From Symploca sp. SIO2E9 (GTDB taxonomy: Bacteria > Cyanobacteriota > Cyanobacteriia > Cyanobacteriales > Coleofasciculaceae): DNA of 9,453 nucleotides. Below, piece by piece: positions 1 through 9,453 of this stretch; the first letter of the stretch is position 1, and every line of letters starts with the position of its first letter. The stretch lies in NCBI GenBank assembly GCA_010692645.1, contig JAAHGS010000235.1, positions 1 through 9,453 of the forward strand, in the 5' to 3' direction. A program made the position numbers and the translations under genes. Below the pieces are notes generated by a model. That model searched no databases. It was not told the origin of the DNA and worked only from the letters and a program-made list of their open reading frames with translations.

Positions 1-1229
1 TTCGCCCCCAGTTGCGCCATAGCTCCCGTATGTTTACGAGTCTTTGGCGTAGAGCTGGAAGCTCCACGGTTAGAGAGGTTCGTCCCGAACCCCTGTGCGT
101 GTAGGACACACACCATGGCAGCGGCTATGTCTCGGTCTTCGACAAATCCACAGTGCTTGCACTCATGGAGTCTTTGACTCAAATCTTTAGGCGCAGTATT
201 CCAACACTTAGGGCATCGTTGGGTTGGCTTAACTTTTGTGGTCAAGACTTCGATTTAGACCCCGCCAGCCTCCTCAACCTTATACTTAACCTTTTGTTTG
301 AAAGCCCCAATTCCTACGTCTAGAAGTGAGCGATTAAGCCCGGCTTTTTGACGTTTACGCTTGCTGCCTTTTTTTGCCTTACGAGTCATCCCTTTCAGGT
401 TTAACTCTTCTGTAGCGACCAGGCTATTACCGCTGACAATTTGTGCCGCTACTTTATGTTGCCAATCATCTCGTTGATTAGCTACCTTGCTGCTCAGCTT
501 GGAGACTTGTTTTTGAGTTTGTTTCCAACGCTTAGAGGCTAAGATATTTTTCTTTCTGTTGGGTGTTCGTTTGCGCCTTAGCCTCTTGGAGGCTTGTTTG
601 ACTTTCTCGCTGGTTTTAGCCAAAAATCTAGGGTTTTCTACCTTAGTGCCGTTAGACATTGCTACAGCAGTTTTGCACCCAAAATCCAAACCTATAGCAC
701 CAGTACTAGTTTCTCTAACTGGGTCACAATTGACGGTGATGCTGGCGTACCATTTATGGTTTTTCCAGACAATGGTGCAAGTGGTAGGTCTTCCCCAAGT
801 CCTTGCCCTACCTCGCATTCGTATCTCACCAAGATTGGATAATTCCAGAAAACCATGATCTCCAGTAGTATGGGTTTTCCAACCAGAACTACAAGGATAA
901 GTCCACCCACGATAGAGTCTGCCAGACTTGAATTTGGGATATTTAGCTAACCCTTTGAAAAAGCGATTGAAGGCGAAATCGACTCGTTTGAGAGTGGCTT
1001 GGAGAGCATGAGAACCCAGTTCTTTATATTCTGGGTGTACTTGCTTGAAAGCGGGCAAACAATTTTGTTGCTCTAGGTAGTCAACTGAGTGATTGAACCG
1101 CCGATATTGAGTCTTTCGATTATACAATGCTGCATTGTATAAATCTTTATGCATTCTGTGCCAATAATGCAACTTTTTAGCTTGACTTTTGGTGGGGTAC
1201 AGCCGAAAATTTACACGCTTCGCCTCCAA
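1..1229 (-). pseudogene. tnpB: TnpB (IS200/IS605-family OrfB, RuvC-like RNA-guided nuclease) interrupted by an in-frame TAA. The 3' end is cut by the window edge.
   Basis: The 324-aa ORF (255-1229) has the TnpB layout: N-terminal 'FRLYPT' start, RuvC-I Asp in AIGLDFG (D at 684-686) and RuvC-II Glu in VATEELN (408-410). After the TAA at 255-257 the same frame stays open to position 3. That stretch encodes IEVLTTKVKPTQRCPKCW...HECKHCGFVEDRDIAAA, which is the CxxC...CxxC zinc finger (150-215) and the RuvC-III Asp (129-131). Confidence 0.8.
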
Positions 1230-1376
1230 TTACATCAGCTCACTTAAGCGCTAATTATTGTTATATAATACCCTAGGTTAGACTAACTATGAAGGGTTTT
1301 CGGCAACTGAAGTTGCTCACACGGGGCTACCTTCCCCACCCTACTCCGTTGAGGATGGGGATTGCCGCCAGGAATG
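1..1376 (-). mobile_element. Partial tnpB-only IS200/IS605-family (IS1341-like) element. The tnpB-upstream (left) end lies near 1376. The tnpB-downstream end and its expected omega-RNA lie outside the window.
   Basis: There is no tnpA between tnpB and the flanking gene stub. Region 1230-1376 is non-coding and has hairpin potential: GCAACT/AGTTGC at about 1304-1317 and CCCCACC...GGATGGGG at about 1334-1360. The boundary is inferred from where the Uma2 homology breaks. Confidence 0.5.
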
Positions 1377-1475
1377 TTCAATTAGTTCACCATCAATTAA
1401 CTCATAGCATTGATTGTCACCATACTGCCTAATGAATTCATCAGCAGTTATAAACTTCGATGCTGCTTTAACCAT
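1341..1475 (-). pseudogene. 5' stub of a Uma2-family (DUF820) endonuclease gene, truncated by the IS insertion.
   Basis: The minus-strand ORF reads MVKAASKFITADEFIRQYGDNQCYELIDGELIE|HSWRQSPSSTE*. The ...EF..YGD..YELIDGELIE stretch matches the characteristic Uma2 N-terminus. The expected continuation (M-P-P...H) is replaced by unrelated residues from about 1376 and a stop at 1341-1343. Confidence 0.5.
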
Positions 1476-1529
1476 CGTGATTGTTAATTATCATGAAAAG
1501 GAATAGTGATCGCTTTGCACTCCTGACTC

Positions 1530-4500
1530 ATGAAACGCATTGTACTCATTGCCGGGTTTGAATCCTTCAACACTGACTTATACCGCAAAGCAGCTGAGCT
1601 GGCAACTAAACGCTGCCCGGAATTAGATATCCTGGTGTTTAGCGATCGCTCCCTCAATTCTGAACCTGCAGCTGTACAAGCTGCTCTACAAGACGCCGAT
1701 GTCTTCTTCGCCAGTCTAATCTTTGATTATGACCAGGTTATCTGGCTGCGCCAACGAGTGCAACAGATTCCCATACGCTTGGTATTTGAGTCAGCCCTAG
1801 AATTAATGAGTTTGACTCAAATCGGTGCCTTTAAAATTGGGGATAAGCCCAAAGGCATGCCTAAGCCAGTTCAATTTATTCTTAGTAAATTTTCCAGTGG
1901 CAAAGAAGAGGATAAACTCGCTGGATACATCAGCTTTTTGAAGACAGGGCCTAAACTCCTAAAATTTATCCCTGTACAAAAAGTCCAAGACTTACGCAAC
2001 TGGCTAATTATCTATGGTTACTGGAATGCTGGCGGCTCAGATAATGTGGCGTCGATGTTTTGGACTTTAGCGGAGAAATACTTAGGGTTAAAGGTAGGAA
2101 CCATTCCGCCTCCGGTAGAAACCCCAAATATGGGATTATTGCATCCAGATTATCAAGGATATTTTGAATCCCCACAAAAATATTTAGAGTGGTATCGCCT
2201 GAGTAAACCAGAAACCTGGCATCTGCCGGTGACAGGCATCTTACTTTATCGCAAGCATGTGGTAACTAAACAGCCCTATATTAACCAGATGATTCGCTAC
2301 TTTGAGCAATCTGGATTAGTACCACTGCCTATTTTTATTAATGGTGTTGAAGGGCATGTGGCGGTAAGGGATTGGATGACAACTGCCTACGAAACTGCCC
2401 AAAGAAAGTTAGGTAAGGTGGCAACTCCTTCCCTATCGACTGAGGCAATGGAAGTTGATGCCATTGTTTCTACTATTGGCTTCCCTTTAGTAGGAGGACC
2501 TGCAGGTTCGATGGAAGCAGGGCGTCAAGTGGAAGTTGCTAAAAGAATTCTTACTGCTAAGAATGTACCTTATATTGTGGCAGCACCACTGTTAATTCAA
2601 GATATTTATTCTTGGACACGCCAGGGTATCGGGGGGTTGCAAAGTGTCGTCTTATATGCTTTGCCAGAATTAGATGGAGCAATTGATCCTGTGCCCCTTG
2701 GTGGTTTAGTGGGAGAAGATATTTATTTAGTTCCAGAGCGAGTCAAGCGACTAACTGGGCGTATCAAGGGTTGGGTTGCTCTGAGTAAGACACCACCAGC
2801 AAACAGACGCATTGCCATTTTACTCTATGGCTTTCCTCCTGGATACGGAGCAACAGGAACAGCAGCTTTATTAAATGTACCGCGATCGCTACTTAAATTG
2901 CTACAGGCACTTAAAGAGCAAGGCTATACCATTGGCGATTTACCTGAAGAGGGTGAAGAGTTAATTCGTATGGTGAAAGAGGCGGATGAAGTGCCAGAGA
3001 ATAAGGAAGATTCTAATAGTTCCTCTCGGGTTAATGTTAAAACCTTGGAAAAATGGTTAGGTTATCTGCTAACTACTCGTATTGAGAAACATTGGAACTC
3101 TCTAAGTGGTGCTGGTATCAAAACCTATGGGGATGAATACCATCTCGGCGGTGTACAGTTAGGGAATATTTGGATTGGCGTGCAACCTCCCCTAGGTATT
3201 GCTGGGGATCCAATGCGGTTAATGTTTGAGAGAGATTTAACTCCTCATCCCCAGTATGCAGCTTTTTATAAATGGTTGCAGAATGACTTTCAGGCTGATG
3301 CTGTAATTCATTTCGGTATGCACGGCACAGTGGAATGGTTGCCTGGTTCTCCTCTTGGTAATACTGGCTATTCTTGGCCAGATATTTTGTTGGGAGATAT
3401 GCCGAATCTCTATATCTATGCTGCCAATAATCCCTCAGAGTCAATTTTGGCAAAGCGCCGTGGTTATGGTGTGTTAATTTCTCATAATGTACCGCCTTAT
3501 GGTCGTGCTGGTTTATATAAGGAGTTGATGGCGCTGCGGGATTTAATCTCGGAGTATCGGGAAGAACCAGAGAAAAATTATGCTCTTAAGGAAGGGATTT
3601 GTAAGAAGATTGTCGATACTGGCTTGGAGGCAGATTGTCCCTTTGAGGATGCCCAAAAACTGGGAATTGCCTTTACTCCCGAAAATGCCCAGATGTTTAG
3701 TAATCACAGTTTTAATGACTATTTATTAAAGCTTTACGAATACCTGCAAGTAGTAGAAAGTCGCTTATTTTCCACTGGTTTACATGCACTGGGTGAGATT
3801 CCGGATTCCGAGCAATTGGCTTCCTATCTGCAAGCCTATTTCGGAGAAGATTTACCGGAAAACTTGATTAACGAGATTGCCTCGGGAACAGATAGCGCTA
3901 GTATCGATAATAAATTTGAACTCAACGGCAAAACTCCGAAATTAGAAGAGGCTTTACAAATCCGTGACTTGCTATCCCAAACTAATGAGGAAATGGTTAA
4001 CCTGTTGCGGGGATTAAATGGTGAATATATCCCCCCAGCACCAGGAGGGGATTTATTAAGGGATGGCCCTGGAGTATTGCCCACAGGCAGAAATATTCAC
4101 GCCCTTGATCCCTATCGGATGCCTTCTCCAGCAGCCTATGAAAGGGGTAGAGAAGTTGCTAAAAAAATTATCGCTCAGCATCTAGAAGAACATAATCAGT
4201 ATCCAGAAACTGTAGCAGTAATGTTGTGGGGATTAGATGCCATTAAAACTCGTGGTGAATCTCTGGGAATTTTATTGGAATTGGTTGGAGCTCAACCTAT
4301 CAAAGAAGGCACAGGGCGAATTGTACGCTATGAATTAAAACCTTTAGCAGAAATTGGACATCCCCGTATTGATGTTTTGGCTAATTTATCTGGTATCTTC
4401 CGGGATAGTTTTGTCAATATCTTGGAATTACTCGATGATTTATTCCTACGGGCAGCCCAAGCCCCAGAATCAGAAGCAGAAAATTTTATCCGCAAACACG

Positions 4501-5258
4501 CTTTAGCACTGCAATCTCAAGGAGTGGAAAATGCCTCTGCCCGGTTATTTTCTAACCCAGCCGGGGATTTTGGTTCCATGGTAAATGAGCGAGTGGTAGA
4601 TAGTAACTGGGAATCAGGAGATGAATTAGCCAAAACCTGGCGCGGACGCAATGCTTTCAGTTACGGTAGAAAAGATAAAGGTCAAGCACGCCCAGAAATT
4701 CTCTCCCAATTACTACAAACCACTAGCCGTGTTGTTCAAGAAATCGACTCAGTAGAATATGGTCTTACCGATATCCAAGAATATTATGCCAATACTGGGG
4801 GTTTGAAGCGGGCAGCAGAAAAAGAAAGTGGCACTAAGGTAAACGCCAGTTTTGTCGAAAGTTTCTCTAAAGATACAACACCCCGCAACTTAGAAGATTT
4901 ACTGCGTCTGGAGTATCGCACCAAATTACTTAACCCCAAGTGGGCAGAGGCAATGGCAAATCAAGGTTCTGGCGGAGCCTATGAAATTTCGCAGCGGATG
5001 ACAGCTTTAATTGGCTGGGGCGGTACTGCCGATTTTACTGATACTTGGGTTTATGATCAAGCTGCTGATACCTATGCTTTTGATTCAGAAATGGCGCAGA
5101 AGTTACGAGAATCTAATCCTGAAGCTTTCCGTAATCTTGTCGGCAGAATGATAGAAGCCCATGGGCGGGGTTTCTGGCAAGCTTCTGAGGAAAAATTGCA
5201 GAAGTTGCGAGAGTTATATGATTTAACGGATGAGGAAATTGAAGGAATAATTAAGTAA
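1530..5258 (+). CDS. chlH: Magnesium-chelatase subunit H family protein (ChlH/BchH-like, CobN/Mg-chelatase superfamily), a short paralog.
   Basis: The 1242-aa ORF has an N-terminus (IVLIAGFES...ADVFFASLIFDYD) that aligns to the ChlH N-terminal domain. It also carries the family signatures HFGMHGTVEWLPG (3309-3347) and LPTGRNIHALDP, which are closer to ChlH/BchH than to CobN. It is shorter than canonical cyanobacterial ChlH (about 1330 aa). Confidence 0.85.
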   Translation: MKRIVLIAGFESFNTDLYRKAAELATKRCPELDILVFSDRSLNSEPAAVQAALQDADVFFASLIFDYDQVIWLRQRVQQIPIRLVFESALELMSLTQIGAFKIGDKPKGMPKPVQFILSKFSSGKEEDKLAGYISFLKTGPKLLKFIPVQKVQDLRNWLIIYGYWNAGGSDNVASMFWTLAEKYLGLKVGTIPPPVETPNMGLLHPDYQGYFESPQKYLEWYRLSKPETWHLPVTGILLYRKHVVTKQPYINQMIRYFEQSGLVPLPIFINGVEGHVAVRDWMTTAYETAQRKLGKVATPSLSTEAMEVDAIVSTIGFPLVGGPAGSMEAGRQVEVAKRILTAKNVPYIVAAPLLIQDIYSWTRQGIGGLQSVVLYALPELDGAIDPVPLGGLVGEDIYLVPERVKRLTGRIKGWVALSKTPPANRRIAILLYGFPPGYGATGTAALLNVPRSLLKLLQALKEQGYTIGDLPEEGEELIRMVKEADEVPENKEDSNSSSRVNVKTLEKWLGYLLTTRIEKHWNSLSGAGIKTYGDEYHLGGVQLGNIWIGVQPPLGIAGDPMRLMFERDLTPHPQYAAFYKWLQNDFQADAVIHFGMHGTVEWLPGSPLGNTGYSWPDILLGDMPNLYIYAANNPSESILAKRRGYGVLISHNVPPYGRAGLYKELMALRDLISEYREEPEKNYALKEGICKKIVDTGLEADCPFEDAQKLGIAFTPENAQMFSNHSFNDYLLKLYEYLQVVESRLFSTGLHALGEIPDSEQLASYLQAYFGEDLPENLINEIASGTDSASIDNKFELNGKTPKLEEALQIRDLLSQTNEEMVNLLRGLNGEYIPPAPGGDLLRDGPGVLPTGRNIHALDPYRMPSPAAYERGREVAKKIIAQHLEEHNQYPETVAVMLWGLDAIKTRGESLGILLELVGAQPIKEGTGRIVRYELKPLAEIGHPRIDVLANLSGIFRDSFVNILELLDDLFLRAAQAPESEAENFIRKHALALQSQGVENASARLFSNPAGDFGSMVNERVVDSNWESGDELAKTWRGRNAFSYGRKDKGQARPEILSQLLQTTSRVVQEIDSVEYGLTDIQEYYANTGGLKRAAEKESGTKVNASFVESFSKDTTPRNLEDLLRLEYRTKLLNPKWAEAMANQGSGGAYEISQRMTALIGWGGTADFTDTWVYDQAADTYAFDSEMAQKLRESNPEAFRNLVGRMIEAHGRGFWQASEEKLQKLRELYDLTDEEIEGIIK
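1642..1649. repeat. HIP1 palindrome GCGATCGC
   Basis: Exact octamer read in the sequence. It is a cyanobacterial signature. Confidence 0.9.
2882..2889. repeat. HIP1 palindrome GCGATCGC
   Basis: Exact octamer read in the sequence. Confidence 0.9.
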
Positions 5259-5340
5259 TAAGTAATAAGTAATAAGTAATAAGTAGGTTGGGTTGAGTAA
5301 TAAGTAATAAGTAATAAGTAATAAGTAATAAGTAATAAGT
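5253..5340. repeat. Tandem heptamer (AAGTAAT / AGTAATA) array in two blocks, STRR-like.
   Basis: Block 1 spans 5253-5284 (about 4.5 units) and block 2 spans 5296-5340 (about 6.5 units). They are separated by GTAGGTTGGGTTGAG (5283-5297). The chlH-like TAA stop (5256-5258) lies inside the first unit. Confidence 0.95.
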
Positions 5341-5342
5341 AG

Positions 5343-5385
5343 GTTGGGTTGAGCAAATGCGAAACCCAACATTTATAATGTTTTT
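5343..5385 (+). terminator. Possible intrinsic terminator for the chlH-like gene.
   Basis: An 8-bp stem pairs GTTGGGTT (5343-5350) with AACCCAAC (5363-5370) around a 12-nt loop, followed by ATTTATAATGTTTTT. The T-run is not adjacent to the stem, so the call is weak. Confidence 0.3.
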
Positions 5386-5421
5386 CTGGAGGGTGAACGC
5401 AATTTTGTGTGGGACTTGAAT

Positions 5422-5470
5422 TCTCCGCGTCTCCGCGTCTCCGCGTCGACCTGTCTCCGCGTCTGGAGCG
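5422..5470. repeat. Tandem octamer TCTCCGCG array.
   Basis: There are three perfect units (5422-5445), a degenerate unit TCGACCTG, one more perfect unit (5454-5461), then TCTGGAGCG. Confidence 0.9.
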
Positions 5471-5573
5471 TCTGCTTACTTATTTCCCCACGCCTTTTTT
5501 CGCTCACCCTTTTCTGGGTTTCGTTTCTCAACCCAGCCTACAGGATTGAGGGCTGAGATACACCTAGTTCTGT

Positions 5574-5608
5574 TCCCTGCTCCCTACTCCCTGCTCCCTG
5601 CTCCCTAA
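5574..5608. repeat. Tandem heptamer TCCCTGC array (5 units), STRR-like.
   Basis: Units read directly: TCCCTGC, TCCCTAC, TCCCTGC, TCCCTGC, TCCCTAA. Confidence 0.9.
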
Positions 5609-5692
5609 AACCGAGAATGATGGCAATGAACCATGAACTATTGCCAAATGCCATAATAGCGGTGAAAGTCCTCAATTTACGATGAAACCGTC

Positions 5693-6100
5693 ATGACACT
5701 GGAATTATTAGCCGCAGAAAAAATAGCTGAACTAGCATTTGGTGCTGTTATCGAAACTGGTGCTAGTGAATTGGTTAAAAAGTTGTGGGGGAAAATTCGT
5801 AACAAACTTAGAAGTGAACCTGTAGCCGAAGCGGCTTTAGTGGAAATTGAGCAAAATCATTCTAGGGAGCAGCTAACGAAGATTGTACCTTTTCTACAGG
5901 TGGAGATGCTTAAAGATCAGCAGTTTGCCCAGGAAATGCAAGCTTTAGCTCACGAAATTAACACTGGCTCGCAAGAGAATATTACCCAGCAGGATTTTGA
6001 AGCTCGTGATAATGCTGGTGTTGTTGGCAAGCAAGTAGGAACAGTTAACAAGGCAGGTGTCACTGAAATTGGAACTCAGATTAACGTGGGAAAGGAGTAA
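5693..6100 (+). CDS. Small helical protein with a Gly/Gln/Val/Asn-rich tail. It is a putative N-terminal effector or adaptor module of the downstream NB-ARC-TPR protein.
   Basis: The 135-aa ORF has an amphipathic N-terminus (MTLELLAAEKIAELAFGAVIETGASELVKKLWGKI), a helical middle and the tail NAGVVGKQVGTVNKAGVTEIGTQINVGKE. It lies on the same strand as the STAND gene, 71 nt upstream of the annotated TTG start. I recognise no enzymatic motif. Confidence 0.6.
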   Translation: MTLELLAAEKIAELAFGAVIETGASELVKKLWGKIRNKLRSEPVAEAALVEIEQNHSREQLTKIVPFLQVEMLKDQQFAQEMQALAHEINTGSQENITQQDFEARDNAGVVGKQVGTVNKAGVTEIGTQINVGKE

Positions 6101-6160
6101 CGGCAGAGGAAGTCCAAGAGTTTTTTAAAAAACTTGAGCAAGGGAATTCCTCAGTTGCCG
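6088..6160 (+). promoter_or_regulatory. Candidate -1 programmed ribosomal frameshift cassette: slippery heptamer G_GGA_AAG, 6-nt spacer, stem-loop.
   Basis: The zero frame reads GTG GGA AAG GAG TAA, so the heptamer 6088-6094 fits X_XXY_YYZ. The spacer is GAGTAA (6095-6100). The stem-loop spans 6101-6160 with these pairs: 6101-6105 with 6156-6160 (CGGCA/TGCCG), 6106-6111 with 6147-6152 (GAGGAA/TTCCTC, with a 3-nt bulge at 6153-6155), and 6113-6115 with 6143-6145. The apex is the palindrome AGTTTTTTAAAAAACT (6119-6134). The -1 frame is open from 6085 and is the frame of the NB-ARC gene. Confidence 0.4.
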
Positions 6161-6171
6161 CTTCCACTAAC

Positions 6172-8436
6172 TTGATTACCACCCCGCCAAACTTAAATAA
6201 CTGGCTTGGTAGAGAAAAGGAAATTAGCCAACTGCAAACCTGGCTCTGTGATACCGCAGTTAATCTGATTGGTATTCAGGGTTTGGGTGGTGTCGGCAAA
6301 TCGGCTTTGGCAGCTTATCTTTATAAACATATTGAGTTTTCGGATAAATTTTGGGCAGATATTAGTCAGAAGCCTGATTTTGTCGTCTTTGCTGAGAAGG
6401 TAATTACTGCTTTTGGTGGGCAAGTTACTAAGCAAGGAGATATCGACGGATTGATTAATGATTTGCTCACCTGCCTTAGTCAGCGTCGGTGTTTGCTGGT
6501 GGTGGATAATCTCGAAACCCTGCTAACCCAATCGCGGCAGTGGCAAGATTCAACCTATGAGCAATTTTTCAGCCGTTGGCTGCAGCAGGGAAGTAACAGC
6601 ACATTGCTACTAACTACCCAGGAAAAGCCAATTCTGTTTCAATCACAACCCTGTTGGCATCTATTGCGGGGAATGAACATTAGTGATGGTGGGCTACTTT
6701 TGCAGCGTCTGGGTATTCAGGAAACTGTTACGCAATTAGAAGAGTTTTCCAAGGCAGTGGATGGGCATCCCCTTACCTTGCAGTTAGTGGCTGGCTATTT
6801 GCGGGAATATTGTCATAGTCAGTTGAGTAGTGCTTGGGAATTAGGATTAAAGCAGTTTGAGTTAGTAGCAGAAGCTCAAGGAGTACACCGAGATAAGCAG
6901 GATGCGCGTTTATCCTGGATTTTACAGCAGCACTTTCAGCGCTTAACCCCTGTGCAGCAAAATTTCCTGGTTAATTTGAGTGTCTATCGGCAAGCATTTA
7001 ACCACCAAGCAGCAGGTTGGATGTTGGCTTCAGAAACAGAAGTAGTTAAGCCAGTGGTAGTGCAGAAGGAATTACGGGAACTATTCAACCGCTCCCTATT
7101 GCTGGAAACTGAAGATAGAAAGTATCGATTTCAGCCTTTGGTACAACAATATGCTCAGCAGCAAACCACTGATATCAATACTGCTCACCAAAAAGCGATC
7201 GCTTACTACAACTCAAATACTAAACAACAACCCTGGCAGACGCTAGAGGATGTCAGAGCCTATCTGGAAATTTTCTATCACTACTGTCAATTAGAACAGT
7301 ATGCCCAAGCCTTTGATACAATCGGCATCTGCGACGAGTTTTTAGATCTACGAGGTTACAATACCATCCGAGTCGAAGTGTATGGACAGTTGGTGCAAGA
7401 GTGGAAACTGAATCAGGATAACCAGTGGAAACTCTCAGCATCTCTGACATTCTTGGGCAATGCATACTATTCCCTCGGACAATACCAACAGGCGATAGAA
7501 TACCATCAGAAGTCATTAAAGATTTTTCGAGCAATTGGCAACCGCTCCGGTATTGCTAATTCTCTGAATAATCTGGGCATAGCATACAATTTCCTAAGAC
7601 AATACCAACAGGCACTCGATTATCTTCAGCAGTCGTTGCAGATATTTCAACAAATCCCTAACCACTCTGGAATTGCTAAGTCTCTGATGAATCTTGGTAT
7701 TGCATACAATTGCCTAGGAAAATATCAACAGGCGCTCGACTATCTTCAGCAGTCGTTGCAGATATTTCAACAAATCGTTAACCGCTCCGGCATTGCTCAT
7801 TCCCTAATGCATCTGGGCATTGTATACAAATCCCTAGGAAAATACCAACAGGCACTCGATTATCTTCAGCAGTCGTTGCAGATATTTCAACAAATCGGTA
7901 ACCGCTCTGGAATTTCGGATTCTCTGAATAATCTGGGCATAGCATACAAATCCCTAGGAAAATACCAACAGGCGCTCGATTATTATCAGCAGTCGTTGCA
8001 GATTAAAAAAGAAATTGGTAACCGCTTTGGAATTGCCAATTCTCTGATGAATCTGGGCAATGCATACTACGCTCTAGGAAAATACCAACAGGCGCTCGAT
8101 TATTATCAGCAGTCGTTGCAGATTAAAAAAGAAATTGGCAACCGCTCCGGCACTGCCAATTCTCTGATTGGTCTTGGTATAGCATACAATTGCCTAAGAC
8201 AATACCAAAGGGCACTCGATTACTTTCAGCAGTCGTTGCCGATTACTCAAGAAATTGGTGATCGTCATGGGGAAGCCAAATCTTGTTTTAATTCTGGATT
8301 TGCCTTAAAAGAACTAGGTAAAACATCAGAAGCTATTACCGCTTATCGAAATGCACGCCAACTATATCAAGCAATGGGACTAGATGCCAAAGTTCAGAAT
8401 TGCGACCATGTGATCGAAACTTTAAATTCAACTTAA
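6172..8436 (+). CDS. NB-ARC (STAND / AP-ATPase) NTPase with a C-terminal TPR array, an NLR-like protein. The true N-terminus is uncertain.
   Basis: Motifs present: Walker A GLGGVGKS (6280-6303), Walker B CLLVVDNLE (6490-6516), LLLTTQ (the hhhTTR-like motif), GHPLTLQLVAGYL (the GxP/'GLPLAL' motif), a winged-helix-like segment LSWILQQHFQRLTPVQQNFLVNLSVY, and at least 8 TPRs. The only in-frame start is a TTG at 6172 with no Shine-Dalgarno sequence. The frame is open upstream to 6085. Confidence 0.85.
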   Translation: MITTPPNLNNWLGREKEISQLQTWLCDTAVNLIGIQGLGGVGKSALAAYLYKHIEFSDKFWADISQKPDFVVFAEKVITAFGGQVTKQGDIDGLINDLLTCLSQRRCLLVVDNLETLLTQSRQWQDSTYEQFFSRWLQQGSNSTLLLTTQEKPILFQSQPCWHLLRGMNISDGGLLLQRLGIQETVTQLEEFSKAVDGHPLTLQLVAGYLREYCHSQLSSAWELGLKQFELVAEAQGVHRDKQDARLSWILQQHFQRLTPVQQNFLVNLSVYRQAFNHQAAGWMLASETEVVKPVVVQKELRELFNRSLLLETEDRKYRFQPLVQQYAQQQTTDINTAHQKAIAYYNSNTKQQPWQTLEDVRAYLEIFYHYCQLEQYAQAFDTIGICDEFLDLRGYNTIRVEVYGQLVQEWKLNQDNQWKLSASLTFLGNAYYSLGQYQQAIEYHQKSLKIFRAIGNRSGIANSLNNLGIAYNFLRQYQQALDYLQQSLQIFQQIPNHSGIAKSLMNLGIAYNCLGKYQQALDYLQQSLQIFQQIVNRSGIAHSLMHLGIVYKSLGKYQQALDYLQQSLQIFQQIGNRSGISDSLNNLGIAYKSLGKYQQALDYYQQSLQIKKEIGNRFGIANSLMNLGNAYYALGKYQQALDYYQQSLQIKKEIGNRSGTANSLIGLGIAYNCLRQYQRALDYFQQSLPITQEIGDRHGEAKSCFNSGFALKELGKTSEAITAYRNARQLYQAMGLDAKVQNCDHVIETLNST
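7195..7202. repeat. HIP1 palindrome GCGATCGC
   Basis: Exact octamer read in the sequence. Confidence 0.9.
7432..8391 (+). repeat. Eight tandem 120-bp (40-aa) TPR-coding repeats. The central six (7552-8271) are near-identical at the DNA level.
   Basis: A 36-nt block TATCTTCAGCAGTCGTTGCAGATATTTCAACAAATC is exact at 7621, 7741 and 7861. A 65-nt block is exact at 7954-8018 and 8074-8138. The repeats are phased exactly 120 bp apart. Confidence 0.95.
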
Positions 8437-8517
8437 CTCAAAGTGCGATTGCTCATCGTGGAGAATAATCCACCGACTATATTTGGATGGTGGCTTAGAA
8501 CAGGGCAAAGGCAATCG

Positions 8518-8895
8518 CTACCAATTAATTACCGTCAGAACATTAACCTTGGCAAATTCCTGATCAGCCGTTACTAAAGTTGCCGAATTTTGGATCGCCA
8601 TTGCCGCAATGATAGCATCCGGTAATTTCAACCGAAATTGTTGGCGAGTTTCAATGATTTTCTCAACCAGTAATATGTCAGTTGACACTAAACTAATCAC
8701 CTCTACTCGTTGAACAAACTGCTGAAAAAGTTGACGATCAGCTTGAGTCAGCCCAGAAAACGCCAGAAACTCAATTTGGCTAATCACTGAAATTCCTAGC
8801 CAATCAGCATTTAGCAATAATTGAACGAGTTGATAATTTCCCTGGAGTAGCGCTACAATTGCATTCGTATCCAACAGGTAGCGATCACCACTCAT
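8518..8895 (-). CDS. vapC: PIN-domain toxin (VapC-like ribonuclease) of a type II toxin-antitoxin pair.
   Basis: The 125-aa protein starts at MSGDRYLLDTNAIV. It has the PIN acidic residues in the expected order: LLDTN, SQIEF, LPDAIIAA, VTADQEF. Its ATG (8893-8895) overlaps the upstream antitoxin stop. The longer ORF start at 8931 would add 12 non-conserved residues. Confidence 0.85.
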   Translation of the reverse strand: MSGDRYLLDTNAIVALLQGNYQLVQLLLNADWLGISVISQIEFLAFSGLTQADRQLFQQFVQRVEVISLVSTDILLVEKIIETRQQFRLKLPDAIIAAMAIQNSATLVTADQEFAKVNVLTVINW

Positions 8896-9109
8896 CCCGG
8901 AGATTCCTCTGCATAGCAACTGCATCTCCATTCCAGGTTAATTGACCTACCAAATCAGAGAAATCATACTTGAACAGCGGCTTCTCGACAGATGAAATTG
9001 GATTCAATACAATGACGACATTGACCTCGGCATCTGCTAATTGGGTCGGAATATTAAGATTCAAACAACCAGACTCATCAATTTTCGTCGTCAGTTTTAT
9101 AACTTCCAT
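8885..9109 (-). CDS. Putative antitoxin partner of the PIN toxin (VapB-like).
   Basis: The 74-aa ORF starts at ATG 9107-9109 (MEVIKLTTKIDESGCLNLNIP...). It lies directly upstream of the PIN gene and overlaps it by 11 nt (8885-8895). The C-terminal ...GDAVAMQRNLRDEW tail is typical of small cyanobacterial antitoxins paired with PIN genes, from my recollection rather than a search. Confidence 0.65.
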   Translation of the reverse strand: MEVIKLTTKIDESGCLNLNIPTQLADAEVNVVIVLNPISSVEKPLFKYDFSDLVGQLTWNGDAVAMQRNLRDEW

Positions 9110-9204
9110 GATCAAGAGCGTGAAAGATTTCTTTCTAGCTTATCCTAGTAGTGCGATCGGTACGCCTCTAGTCGTTGATCATACGGACAAATCTTGACAA
9201 TTAA

Positions 9205-9246
9205 TACATATTTAGCCATAGTATCGACATTATGGCTAAATATGTA
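9205..9246. promoter_or_regulatory. Perfect 16-bp inverted repeat spanning the tnpA start codon. It is a candidate IS607 left-end site or operator, or a translational hairpin.
   Basis: TACATATTTAGCCATA (9205-9220) and TATGGCTAAATATGTA (9231-9246) are exact reverse complements separated by 10 nt. The ATG at 9232-9234 lies in the right arm. A TTGACA hexamer sits at 9194-9199. Confidence 0.5.
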
Positions 9247-9453
9247 AAACCAAGTGAAGCAGCTGAGTCTTTGGGAGTTTGCCTCAGAACCCTCAGAAGA
9301 TGGGAATCCGAGGGCAAGATCCAAACCGTCAAAACGCCGTCAGGGCATAGGCGCTACAACATCGAAGGGTTCATCAAAAAAGAATCAGAACCCGACGGAG
9401 GAAGAGCCGTTGTTGTCTATGCTAGGGTATCTACCCGACCACAAAAAGCAGAT
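9232..9453 (+). CDS. tnpA: IS607-family serine recombinase transposase TnpA (MerR-like HTH plus resolvase domain). This is the 5' part only and it runs off the window.
   Basis: Translation: MAKYVKPSEAAESLGVCLRTLRRWESEGKIQTVKTPSGHRRYNIEGFIKKESEPDGGRAVVVYARVSTRPQKAD. This shows a MerR-type HTH followed by the resolvase catalytic-serine motif YARVS(T)..QK.D. The ORF is absent from the supplied ORF track because it is truncated. Confidence 0.8.
   Translation, partial: MAKYVKPSEAAESLGVCLRTLRRWESEGKIQTVKTPSGHRRYNIEGFIKKESEPDGGRAVVVYARVSTRPQKAD

Follow-up and report, generated by a model that had tools for sequence, protein, structure and literature searches.

How is an NLR-like receptor expressed when its reading frame opens inside the gene in front of it and lacks any conserved start codon? 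The question is raised by a 9,453-nucleotide (nt) stretch of DNA from Symploca sp. SIO2E9 (contig JAAHGS010000235.1, positions 1 to 9,453; hereafter the window), which carries on its + strand a small open reading frame (ORF) for a helical protein and, directly downstream, a larger ORF for a STAND ATPase with an NB-ARC domain and a C-terminal TPR array. A first-pass annotation of the bare sequence had taken these to be two adjacent genes, and both ORFs do lie where it placed them on the + strand, at 5693-6100 and at 6172 (TTG) to 8436. The second frame, however, is already open from 6085, overlaps the small ORF and lacks a conserved start, and a recoding site conserved among relatives connects the two, which argues against two separate genes. 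We consider it likely that 5693-8436 is instead transcribed and translated as a single unit, a Bell/BASS-type NLR module that depends on programmed recoding for its expression, in which the 'N-terminal effector' of the first-pass annotation would exist both free and fused, because the recoding site links the small ORF to the NLR. The domains, the family, and the anatomy and conservation of the junction are direct results of the computational analysis described below.

Anatomy of the junction

The argument turns on the following features.

5693..6100, + strand: zero-frame ORF with an ATG start, 135 aa, for the Bell-type small protein (the termination product), assigned from homologues and from the BASS10/BASS8 relatives of Dyrka et al. 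2020 (10.1101/2020.01.06.895854)
6088..6094, + strand: slippery heptamer G_GGA_AAG in the X_XXY_YYZ phase (zero-frame GTG GGA AAG), from sequence and phase
6098..6100, + strand: zero-frame stop TAA, one codon past the heptamer
6101..6160, + strand: candidate stimulatory stem-loop (uncertain), 6 nt past the heptamer, from folding
6094..8436, + strand: -1 frame continuation, 780 codons and a stop, as a conceptual product
6094..6171, + strand: linker 5' of the annotated TTG, GVTAEEVQEFFKKLEQGNSSVAASTN, recognised by amino-acid conservation
6172..8436, + strand: the large ORF as annotated, with a TTG start, 754 aa

The small ORF ends GTG GGA AAG GAG TAA. The NLR frame, which is -1 relative to it, is closed by a TAA at 6082-6084 and open from 6085, and so overlaps the last 16 nt of the small ORF, its stop included. 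A ribosome that slipped by -1 on the heptamer would make a conceptual product of 914 aa, consisting of residues 1-134 of the small protein followed by the continuation, in the order Bell-BASS-linker-NB-ARC-TPR. G_GGA_AAG is highly shift-prone in E. coli and forms the g-t shift site of haloarchaeal viruses (Atkins et al. review, PMC5009743).

If the locus instead held two ordinary genes, the NLR would start at TTG 6172 or at non-canonical codons, perhaps by termination-reinitiation, and the heptamers found here and in relatives, together with the TGA stops described below, would be a coincidence of C-termini reading ..LGK or ..EKK. The open frame of the window does reach a TTG after 29 codons, separate genes are what gene callers annotate at all the loci, and many Bell/NLR pairs are separated by a short gap or overlap slightly (Dyrka 2020). 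This TTG, however, is replaced by CTG or CTA in two relatives (L002 and L003) and so fails as a conserved start. Between the heptamer and the TTG, moreover, lie 26 codons that are conserved as protein and differ from L001 and L006 by an in-frame 9-nt indel; across the comparison, the 26-29 codons 5' of the TTG tolerate in-frame indels only. The peptides GVTAEEVQEFFK and LEQGNSSVAASTNLITTPPNLNNWLGR are encoded in this part of the -1 frame, 5' of TTG 6172. No copy of the tail (BASS) motif of the small protein was found past the junction in the NLR frame (from 6085) in the window class. Because this frame has neither a motif copy nor a conserved start, the BASS motif would reach the NLR only through the recoded fusion, and sequence comparison suggests that the NLR part is probably made mainly as a fusion, without a conserved start of its own.

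The junction across cyanobacterial relatives

The comparison covered about 80 cyanobacterial loci (23 genome and 45 metagenome loci, plus loci fetched for single proteins), many of them from metagenome-assembled genomes (MAGs) or metagenomes, with the independence of lineages judged from sequence divergence. Loci are numbered with the prefix L and individual proteins with the prefix P. Five classes of junction were seen.

Class a: G_GGA_AAG or G_GGA_AAC with the NLR in the -1 frame; 7 loci, including the window, L001, L006, L002 (same as L030), L029 and L074
Class b: A_AAA_AAG with the NTPase in the -1 frame; 14 loci, including L032, L033, L036, L037, L039, L040, L041, L042, L044, L045, L050, L075 and L076
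Class c: NLR in the same frame behind a single in-frame TGA that has C or A as its next base, and open from the codon after it; 8 lineages (L003, the L005 Microcystis group, which includes complete genomes, L007, L008, L011, L021, L022, L035)
Class d: classical pairs, in which the NLR has its own Met and its own motif copy and the stops are TAA or TAG; BASS10 and BASS8 loci
Class e: no partner seen at the junction; the remaining loci

Together, the -1 loci number 21, and each of the 18 that were checked for phase (18/18) carries an in-phase G_GGA_AAG/C or A_AAA_AAG heptamer, beginning on the third base of a zero-frame codon and followed by the stop zero to one codon later. For comparison, the same loci contain 464 distinct ORF ends, of which 28 show an in-phase heptamer of any kind within the last three codons. 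In 20 of these 28 it is one of the three heptamers seen at the junctions, and these ends presumably belong to the Bell ORFs; the background for an in-phase heptamer is therefore about 2%. In the in-frame class, the stop is TGA in eight of eight lineages, as against 2 of 22 non-recoded Bell genes (Fisher p=7.7e-6). UGA is the leakiest bacterial stop codon, and is weakest with C after it.

These regularities bear directly on the possibility of two ordinary genes. Reinitiation predicts no frame preference, yet the NLR frame is always either -1 with an in-phase heptamer or 0 with a TGA, and never +1; the codon choice at the junction is likewise fixed (GGA, AAG). In eight loci (L002, L008, L036, L039, L041, L044, L061 and L066), no ATG, GTG or TTG lies between the junction and Walker A, so that an independently started protein would be without its P-loop. 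The peptide that follows the junction is homologous in most loci of the heptamer and TGA classes (VT.TE..L..EKLEQG.S...NLITTPPNL..W.GR.EEI.QL..WL). Taken with the replaced TTG and the protein-level conservation of the linker, these findings make separately initiated genes an unlikely explanation.

In a predictive test, three divergent members were picked solely by their C-termini (..VGKD, ..EKKP and ..EKKL), and all three loci proved to hold an in-phase heptamer and a -1 NTPase ORF opening inside the overlap. The partner itself can differ: in L037, L040, L042 and L076, A_AAA_AAG joins a Bell-type ORF to a different NTPase in the -1 frame, which in L076 is Pfam nSTAND1 with pentapeptide repeats and which in L037, L040 and L042 shares a ..GPNPYKGLLYFDEEDS..FGRE.. 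lead-in. These loci carry a second beta-rich segment, ..GNAILAGDGNIVIFQTS.., past the junction.

Might the interruption instead mark a decaying pseudogene, an all-in-one Bell-NB-ARC-TPR gene broken by a frameshift (or by nonsense in relatives), or else an assembly error? Uninterrupted fusions do exist (P0064, P0120 and P0169, described below), some recoded loci have truncated NLR parts, and an A7 run could draw homopolymer errors. Against such an origin, the alignments place the interruption at one site, where the tail ends, throughout about 29 loci or lineages of many genera, including the complete genomes L019 and L012. It recurs with different junction nucleotides in Symploca MAGs, of which at least three are independent (the window, L001 and L006), and the interruptions take three forms only, each a known recoding signal, the nonsense codon always being TGA at the significance given above. 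Both halves, furthermore, are intact and conserved. Decay or misassembly thus appears very improbable, and the comparative sequence data are poorly compatible with the two-gene and the pseudogene explanations alike.

Three narrower candidates were also rejected. A simple frameshift mutation or sequencing error does not fit a signal conserved across genera, in three signal types and in complete genomes. For the in-frame class, selenocysteine or a reassigned UGA was judged unparsimonious, with no SECIS search made, since sister loci use frameshift heptamers at the same junction, and reinitiation at a CTG right after the TGA is at odds with the variety of codons found there (CTG, CTT, CCC, ATA, AAG).

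As to RNA elements that might stimulate recoding, the stem-loop at 6101-6160 of the window (dG -22.1 kcal/mol, z = -2.36) starts 6 nt past the heptamer, and similar stems with the same 6-nt spacing occur in L001 (z -2.48) and L006 (z -2.08), whose junctions were folded on 90-nt segments, long enough for the 3' arm; the three stems range from -22 to -23 kcal/mol. In L074 the stem at this spacing is a different one, of 7 bp. RNAalifold returned essentially no structure for the A_AAA_AAG class (-1.1 kcal/mol) and, for the G_GGA_AAG class, a long-range stem without covariation support (covariation term +0.64). The adjacent stop codon, zero to one codon past the heptamer, is the sole universally conserved candidate stimulator. 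In the L005 Microcystis group and L007, a hairpin TCTGC-(8 nt)-GCAGA with differing loops lies 9-30 nt past the in-frame TGA; because it overlaps conserved codons (LH..KAD), it may be merely a coding constraint. An Rfam scan of the whole window gave no match, and no + strand terminator was found between the small ORF and the NLR ORF.

The two halves of the module and their genomic setting

The two halves of the predicted product are built from the following parts.

5693..5971, + strand: five-helix N-terminal domain of the small protein, residues 1-93, from an AlphaFold2 (AF2) model and an invariant core
5972..6040, + strand: BASS10-like core of the disordered tail, residues 94-116, QENITQQDFEARDNAGVVGKQVG, from alignment to BASS10 tails and NLR heads
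6211..6861, + strand: NB-ARC domain, residues 14-230 of the 754-aa ORF, from Pfam
6280..6303, + strand: Walker A GLGGVGKS, from the translation
7381..8406, + strand: TPR array of about 8-9 units, from Pfam and the tandem repeat

The small ORF, whose product is 100% identical to its entry in the Symploca sp. SIO2E9 MAG, is a real, conserved gene. Its close homologues (n=17, 129-189 aa) are all cyanobacterial or metagenomic, and a profile search with HMMER of 1.84 billion representatives recovered 315 clusters at E<=1e-3, nearly all of 120-155 aa. When the homologues are aligned, the N-terminal part proves conserved and contains an invariant VPFLQVEMLKD..FA core; the tail varies and is rich in N, Q, G and V. 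Searches of Pfam, PADLOC and NCBIfam with the small ORF found no family match, and Pfam assigned no family to 98 relatives; an identity with EAD9, suggested by a weak match in 2 of the 98, was judged to be noise. The AF2 model, built on a 98-sequence alignment, is all-helical over residues 8-91 (helices 8-20, 26-39, 43-55, 58-74 and 76-91), with a per-residue confidence (pLDDT) of about 81-90 over residues 11-90, and has a disordered tail at residues 94-135 (pLDDT <50).

Sequence homology places this protein in the Bell-domain/BASS family. P0015, which has a BASS10-type tail, matches it at E=7e-15, and the small protein's Microcystis relatives in L009, L010 and L012 are of the EPF21721.1 type of BASS10 Bell protein (tblastn E~3e-19). 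The small proteins of these three loci end ..NATAYDNSTVKMVGKIEADTVSF, and the NLR that follows has its own Met start and carries ..SATAQDQSKVNLIGKIE..; these are the strings of the BASS10 Bell/NLR pair EPF21721.1/EPF21720.1 (Table S2, Dyrka et al. 2020, 10.1101/2020.01.06.895854). Four further loci (L023, L025, L026 and L028) carry the NNYGRDQ(I/F)NIE motif, which is BASS8 of the same study. The window tail aligns with BASS10 Bell tails and NLR heads (..NI..N..A.D.S.V..VGK.E), the I, V and GK being invariant. At the other end, MEP[LIV][TS] or MTDPVT opens the sequence of many family members and resembles the 'MEPIS' N-terminal region common to Bell, Hell, Bab and some antiphage NLRs (Ibarlosa et al. 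2024, 10.1101/2024.11.07.622273), of which the window start, MTLELLAAEKIAELAFGAV, is a divergent form. In Bell domains four helices cup helix 1 (Ibarlosa et al. 2024), and the five-helix model has an N-terminal helix of this kind. The first-pass annotation's small, helical, non-catalytic protein is borne out by these results, which add that it is of the Bell kind (HeLo-analogous); the BASS10-like amyloid-signalling tail had been missed. The comparison proposed in that annotation, with HeLo, Bell, CC and 4HB folds, yielded the five-helix model and a Bell assignment by sequence, with no significant fold match in the PDB.

The N-terminal domain also occurs in other contexts, fused to CHAT, TRADD-N and TIR in P0111, to TIR in P0069 and to GUN4 in P0052, and is present three times in P0085. 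These architectures suggest that it can also serve as an adaptor or module in other conflict proteins. In two Calothrix MAGs (L013 and L020), Bell homologues end ..HIGDVNNPG, like the recoded L003, with a TAG stop, and no ORF for an NTPase opens at the junction; these homologues are possibly orphan effectors, which would fit the use of TGA only where an NLR follows.

Uninterrupted proteins with Bell, tail and NB-ARC(-TPR) parts (P0064, 967 aa; P0120, 957 aa; P0103) indicate, at the sequence level, that the Bell-NB-ARC fusion is a real architecture. In one more uninterrupted ORF, P0169, the product shares 49% identity with the window's -1 product over the latter's first 340 residues, which span the junction (E=2e-96), and the junction reads GAG GGA AAG GGT GAA, the window's heptamer being here in frame. 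The P0169 gene (1023-2384 in the L077/L078 metagenome) lies directly 3' of a Phd/YoeB toxin-antitoxin pair and ends after 453 aa, inside the NB-ARC arm and without TPRs; it may be a decaying or truncated all-in-one form.

The receptor half carries a complete STAND NB-ARC motif set. PF00931 matches residues 14-230 at E=1.4e-10 (41.3 bits against a cut-off of 23.5), and Walker A GLGGVGKS, Walker B LLVVDNLE, LLLTTQ and GHPLTLQLVA are all present in the translation, in agreement with the first-pass call. The same holds for its count of at least eight TPRs: Pfam reports TPR_12 at 5.5e-69, TPR_10 over 7 stretches and TPR_1 over 7 stretches, and the underlying DNA is a 120-nt tandem repeat of 6.6 copies (82% match, 7454-8243) that amounts to about 8-9 units when the flanks are counted. 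Between sister Symploca loci, the NB-ARC domain and arm are 90-98% identical, as against 52-72% for the TPR array, which also differs in repeat number. The array is thus the fast-evolving, most divergent part of the module by sequence comparison, in keeping with the hypervariable sensor first proposed. The NLRs of L001 and L006 (Symploca SIO2B6 and SIO3C6) are extended at the C-terminus by about 95 aa that include a strongly hydrophobic, transmembrane-like stretch, WQLVLCFVAGLVAFPFALVIFVLLILW; the window NLR has no such extension. PADLOC matched no Avs, bNACHT or other STAND model to the window NLR, giving generic TPR models only (PDLC01169 and similar), and the suggested Avs-type membership is thereby not borne out.

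On the question raised in the first-pass annotation, the small gene does travel with a STAND gene. It again lies directly 5' of an NB-ARC/TPR gene in Symploca SIO2B6, in another cyanobacterium and in Microcystis, with unrelated flanking genes each time; the pair is mobile, moving jointly through unrelated neighbourhoods. In the window itself, the neighbours have the accessory-island character already described for it.

255-1229, - strand: TnpB (OrfB_IS605) gene
~1229-1530, - strand: Uma2-like fragment, by inspection
1530-5258, + strand: ChlH/CobN gene
8518-8931, - strand: PIN/VapC gene
~9232-9453, + strand: start of an IS607-type serine recombinase that runs off the right end, by inspection

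The TnpB ORF stops at 255, and its zinc-finger C-terminal part (..CPKCW..HECKHCGF..) resumes in a different frame within 1-255 on the - strand, from which the gene appears to be frameshifted or disrupted. The short open stretch at ~1229-1530 (..FITADEFIRQYGDNQCYELIDGELIE..) resembles, by inspection, the N-terminal fragment of a Uma2-family endonuclease, in keeping with the disrupted Uma2 gene of the first-pass annotation. At the right end, the ORF begins MAKYVKPSEAAESLGVCLRTLRRWESEGK...VVVYARVSTRPQKAD and resembles a MerR-type helix-turn-helix followed by a serine-recombinase N-terminus, a layout typical of IS607-family TnpA, which makes it the window's second insertion sequence (IS) element. 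The intergenic region 5' of the small ORF contains several blocks of short tandem repeats, heptamers or octamers, at 5253-5354, ~5423-5465 and ~5570-5607; they consist of (TAAGTAA)n broken twice by GGTTGGGTTGAG, (CTCCGCGT)n and (CTCCCTG/A)n, and resemble cyanobacterial repeats of the STRR type.

Proposed activation and implications

The two-gene Bell/BASS-NLR clusters of Dyrka 2020 (10.1101/2020.01.06.895854) belong to the same protein family, the window's relatives being their BASS10/BASS8 Bell proteins, and in them, as in the window, a helical domain of about 100 aa with a short C-terminal motif lies directly 5' of, and collinear with, a cyanobacterial NB-ARC/TPR gene. In those pairs the NLR has its own start and its own N-terminal motif copy, whereas the window's NLR frame lacks both and connects to the small ORF through a recoding site. 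That paper, in which Bell homologues number about 2,800, uses none of the words frameshift, readthrough, stop codon and pseudogene, and its motif-pair screen could not have detected recoded loci; full-text literature searches on NLR, NB-ARC, Bell and antiphage STAND genes returned no report of frameshifting or readthrough. All-in-one NLRs (fungal HeLo-NACHT proteins, plant ZAR1-type CC-NLRs and the bacterial Bell all-in-one form noted by Dyrka) have the architecture of the predicted trans-frame product. Unlike in these, the free N-terminal domain would be the main product in the window and the all-in-one protein the minor one. Avs and bNACHT proteins share the general plan, in which a STAND NTPase has an effector at its N-terminus and a sensor made of repeats at its C-terminus, and some carry 'MEPIS'; the window protein, by contrast, matches none of their PADLOC models and has an NB-ARC NTPase with TPR_10/12.

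For the signalling itself, the relevant comparison is with Bab/Agp of E. coli and fungal HET-S/NWD2, in each of which a small, helical, membrane-targeting effector bears a C-terminal amyloid motif, the sensor bears the same motif, and the outcome is cell death. Bab/Agp provides the precedent for Bell and BASS signalling in antiphage abortive infection in E. coli (Ibarlosa et al. 2024, 10.1101/2024.11.07.622273), although Bab has no sequence or fold match to the window's small protein in the PDB profile and Foldseek searches.

Recoding that yields two proteins with a common N-terminus has precedents of its own. G_GGA_AAG is also the G-T frameshift site of phage lambda, where it gives gpG and gpGT, and A_AAA_AAG is used by dnaX (tau/gamma) and by IS3 transposases; the window family has the same heptamers in the same phase. 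The Q-beta coat/A1 pair is made by UGA readthrough, and retroviral Gag/Gag-Pol by -1 frameshifting in human immunodeficiency virus (HIV) and by stop readthrough in murine leukaemia virus (MuLV). Much as in retroviruses, frameshift and readthrough signals interchange at one junction in related genes of the window family, and an abundant short product with a rare extended one would likewise be expected. Unlike the recoded genes of viruses, IS elements or replication, the window gene is a cellular immune-receptor-like STAND NTPase, and RNAalifold finds no conserved stimulatory RNA for it.

We infer ribosomal slippage and its efficiency and, by analogy with Bab/Agp and HET-S/NWD2, amyloid templating, membrane attack and a role in defence as parts of one activation sequence. 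Ribosomes would start at ATG 5693, and most would terminate at TAA 6098, releasing the 135-aa five-helix Bell-type protein with its BASS10-like tail. A minority would slip by -1 on G_GGA_AAG at 6088-6094, perhaps helped by the stop at the next codon and by the stem-loop at 6101-6160, and would continue in the -1 frame to make the 914-aa Bell-BASS-linker-NB-ARC protein with its variable TPR array. On sensing a non-self or infection cue through the TPR array, the NB-ARC domain would oligomerise and cluster the Bell-BASS units of a few fusion molecules, whose BASS segments would nucleate an amyloid-like fold. This fold would template the abundant free Bell-BASS protein, the helical domain of which would then attack the membrane and kill the cell, in abortive infection or in allorecognition. 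Recoding would in this manner set the effector-to-sensor ratio and ensure that receptor and effector carry an identical motif. Cell death, membrane targeting and phage defence, which the first-pass annotation had also proposed, are extrapolated here from homologous systems.

Several points weigh against this reading, the first being that frameshifting, readthrough and both products are deduced from comparative sequence. RNAalifold found no conserved stimulatory RNA element with covariation support, and TTG 6172 could allow some weak independent initiation in the window. The NLR parts of L002/L030, L036 and L041 are truncated, which indicates that part of the recoded family is decaying. A Foldseek search of the AF2 model against the PDB gave a best E of 1.1 and no match to Bab, HeLo, MLKL or CC folds, an NRC4 resistosome chain appearing only at E~3 with a probability of 0.06, and a profile search of the small-protein family against PDB sequences returned nothing significant and no Bab match. 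Bell membership thus rests on homology to the Bell proteins named by Dyrka; the source papers describe structural similarity inside the Bell/HeLo superfamily as very low. Because the N-terminal domain is fused to TIR, CHAT-TRADD-N-TIR and GUN4, an adaptor role fits it at least as well as that of a pore-former, and because uninterrupted fusions retain the tail motif, this motif may have a role besides inter-protein templating.

The last of these points lead to the main rival, in which the recoding is real and the short product serves in regulation, as a decoy or cap by which the fused N-terminal domain is silenced, works as an adaptor akin to effector-associated domains, or is the by-product of a device that throttles NLR synthesis to a few per cent. 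The adaptor-like fusions, the retention of the tail in all-in-one proteins and the want of a structural match to known pore-forming four-helix bundles all favour it. In the BASS10 and BASS8 sister loci, however, the small gene stands alone and its tail motif is duplicated on a separately initiated NLR, a layout that in Bab/Agp and HET-S/NWD2 goes with the small protein acting as effector; throttling alone, moreover, would not require the stop to fall exactly past the tail motif in every lineage. We regard a regulatory or adaptor role as possible, though improbable, and retain the free Bell-BASS protein as the expected effector of the recoded module.

Set among its relatives, the recoded form sits between the classical pair of class d and the all-in-one protein, and would supply the motif by fusing the entire effector to the NLR. 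It has, in our estimate, slightly better than an even chance of representing a third build of NLR amyloid signalling, besides the shared-motif gene pair and the all-in-one receptor: one recoded gene giving an excess of free Bell-BASS and a few Bell-BASS-NLR molecules, with three interchangeable signals at one homologous junction and at least two NTPase types (NB-ARC-TPR and nSTAND1-pentapeptide).

Bell/BASS-NLR clusters are already known, and the new feature is the recoded junction in place of a separately encoded NLR motif. If the reading is true, an immune-receptor-like gene of a prokaryote would be described here for the first time, as far as literature searches show, as using a programmed frameshift or readthrough, and such a gene would join the short list of non-mobile bacterial genes with programmed frameshifting or readthrough. 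The annotated NLR start would then probably be wrong in about half of the Bell subfamily loci (about 29 loci or lineages in the sample), and motif-pair screens would miss recoded loci entirely. Cyanobacteria, in which recoding signals are little studied, would also offer compact, portable frameshift and readthrough cassettes. Selection would act on the effector-to-sensor ratio itself, as it does for retroviral Gag/Gag-Pol. Because one family holds four versions of the module (two-gene pair, leaky stop, frameshift and full fusion), it would constitute a natural experiment on this ratio in signal amplification of the amyloid or supramolecular organising centre (SMOC) type, and exchanging the four versions experimentally would reveal how stoichiometry and motif identity control the threshold for cell death.

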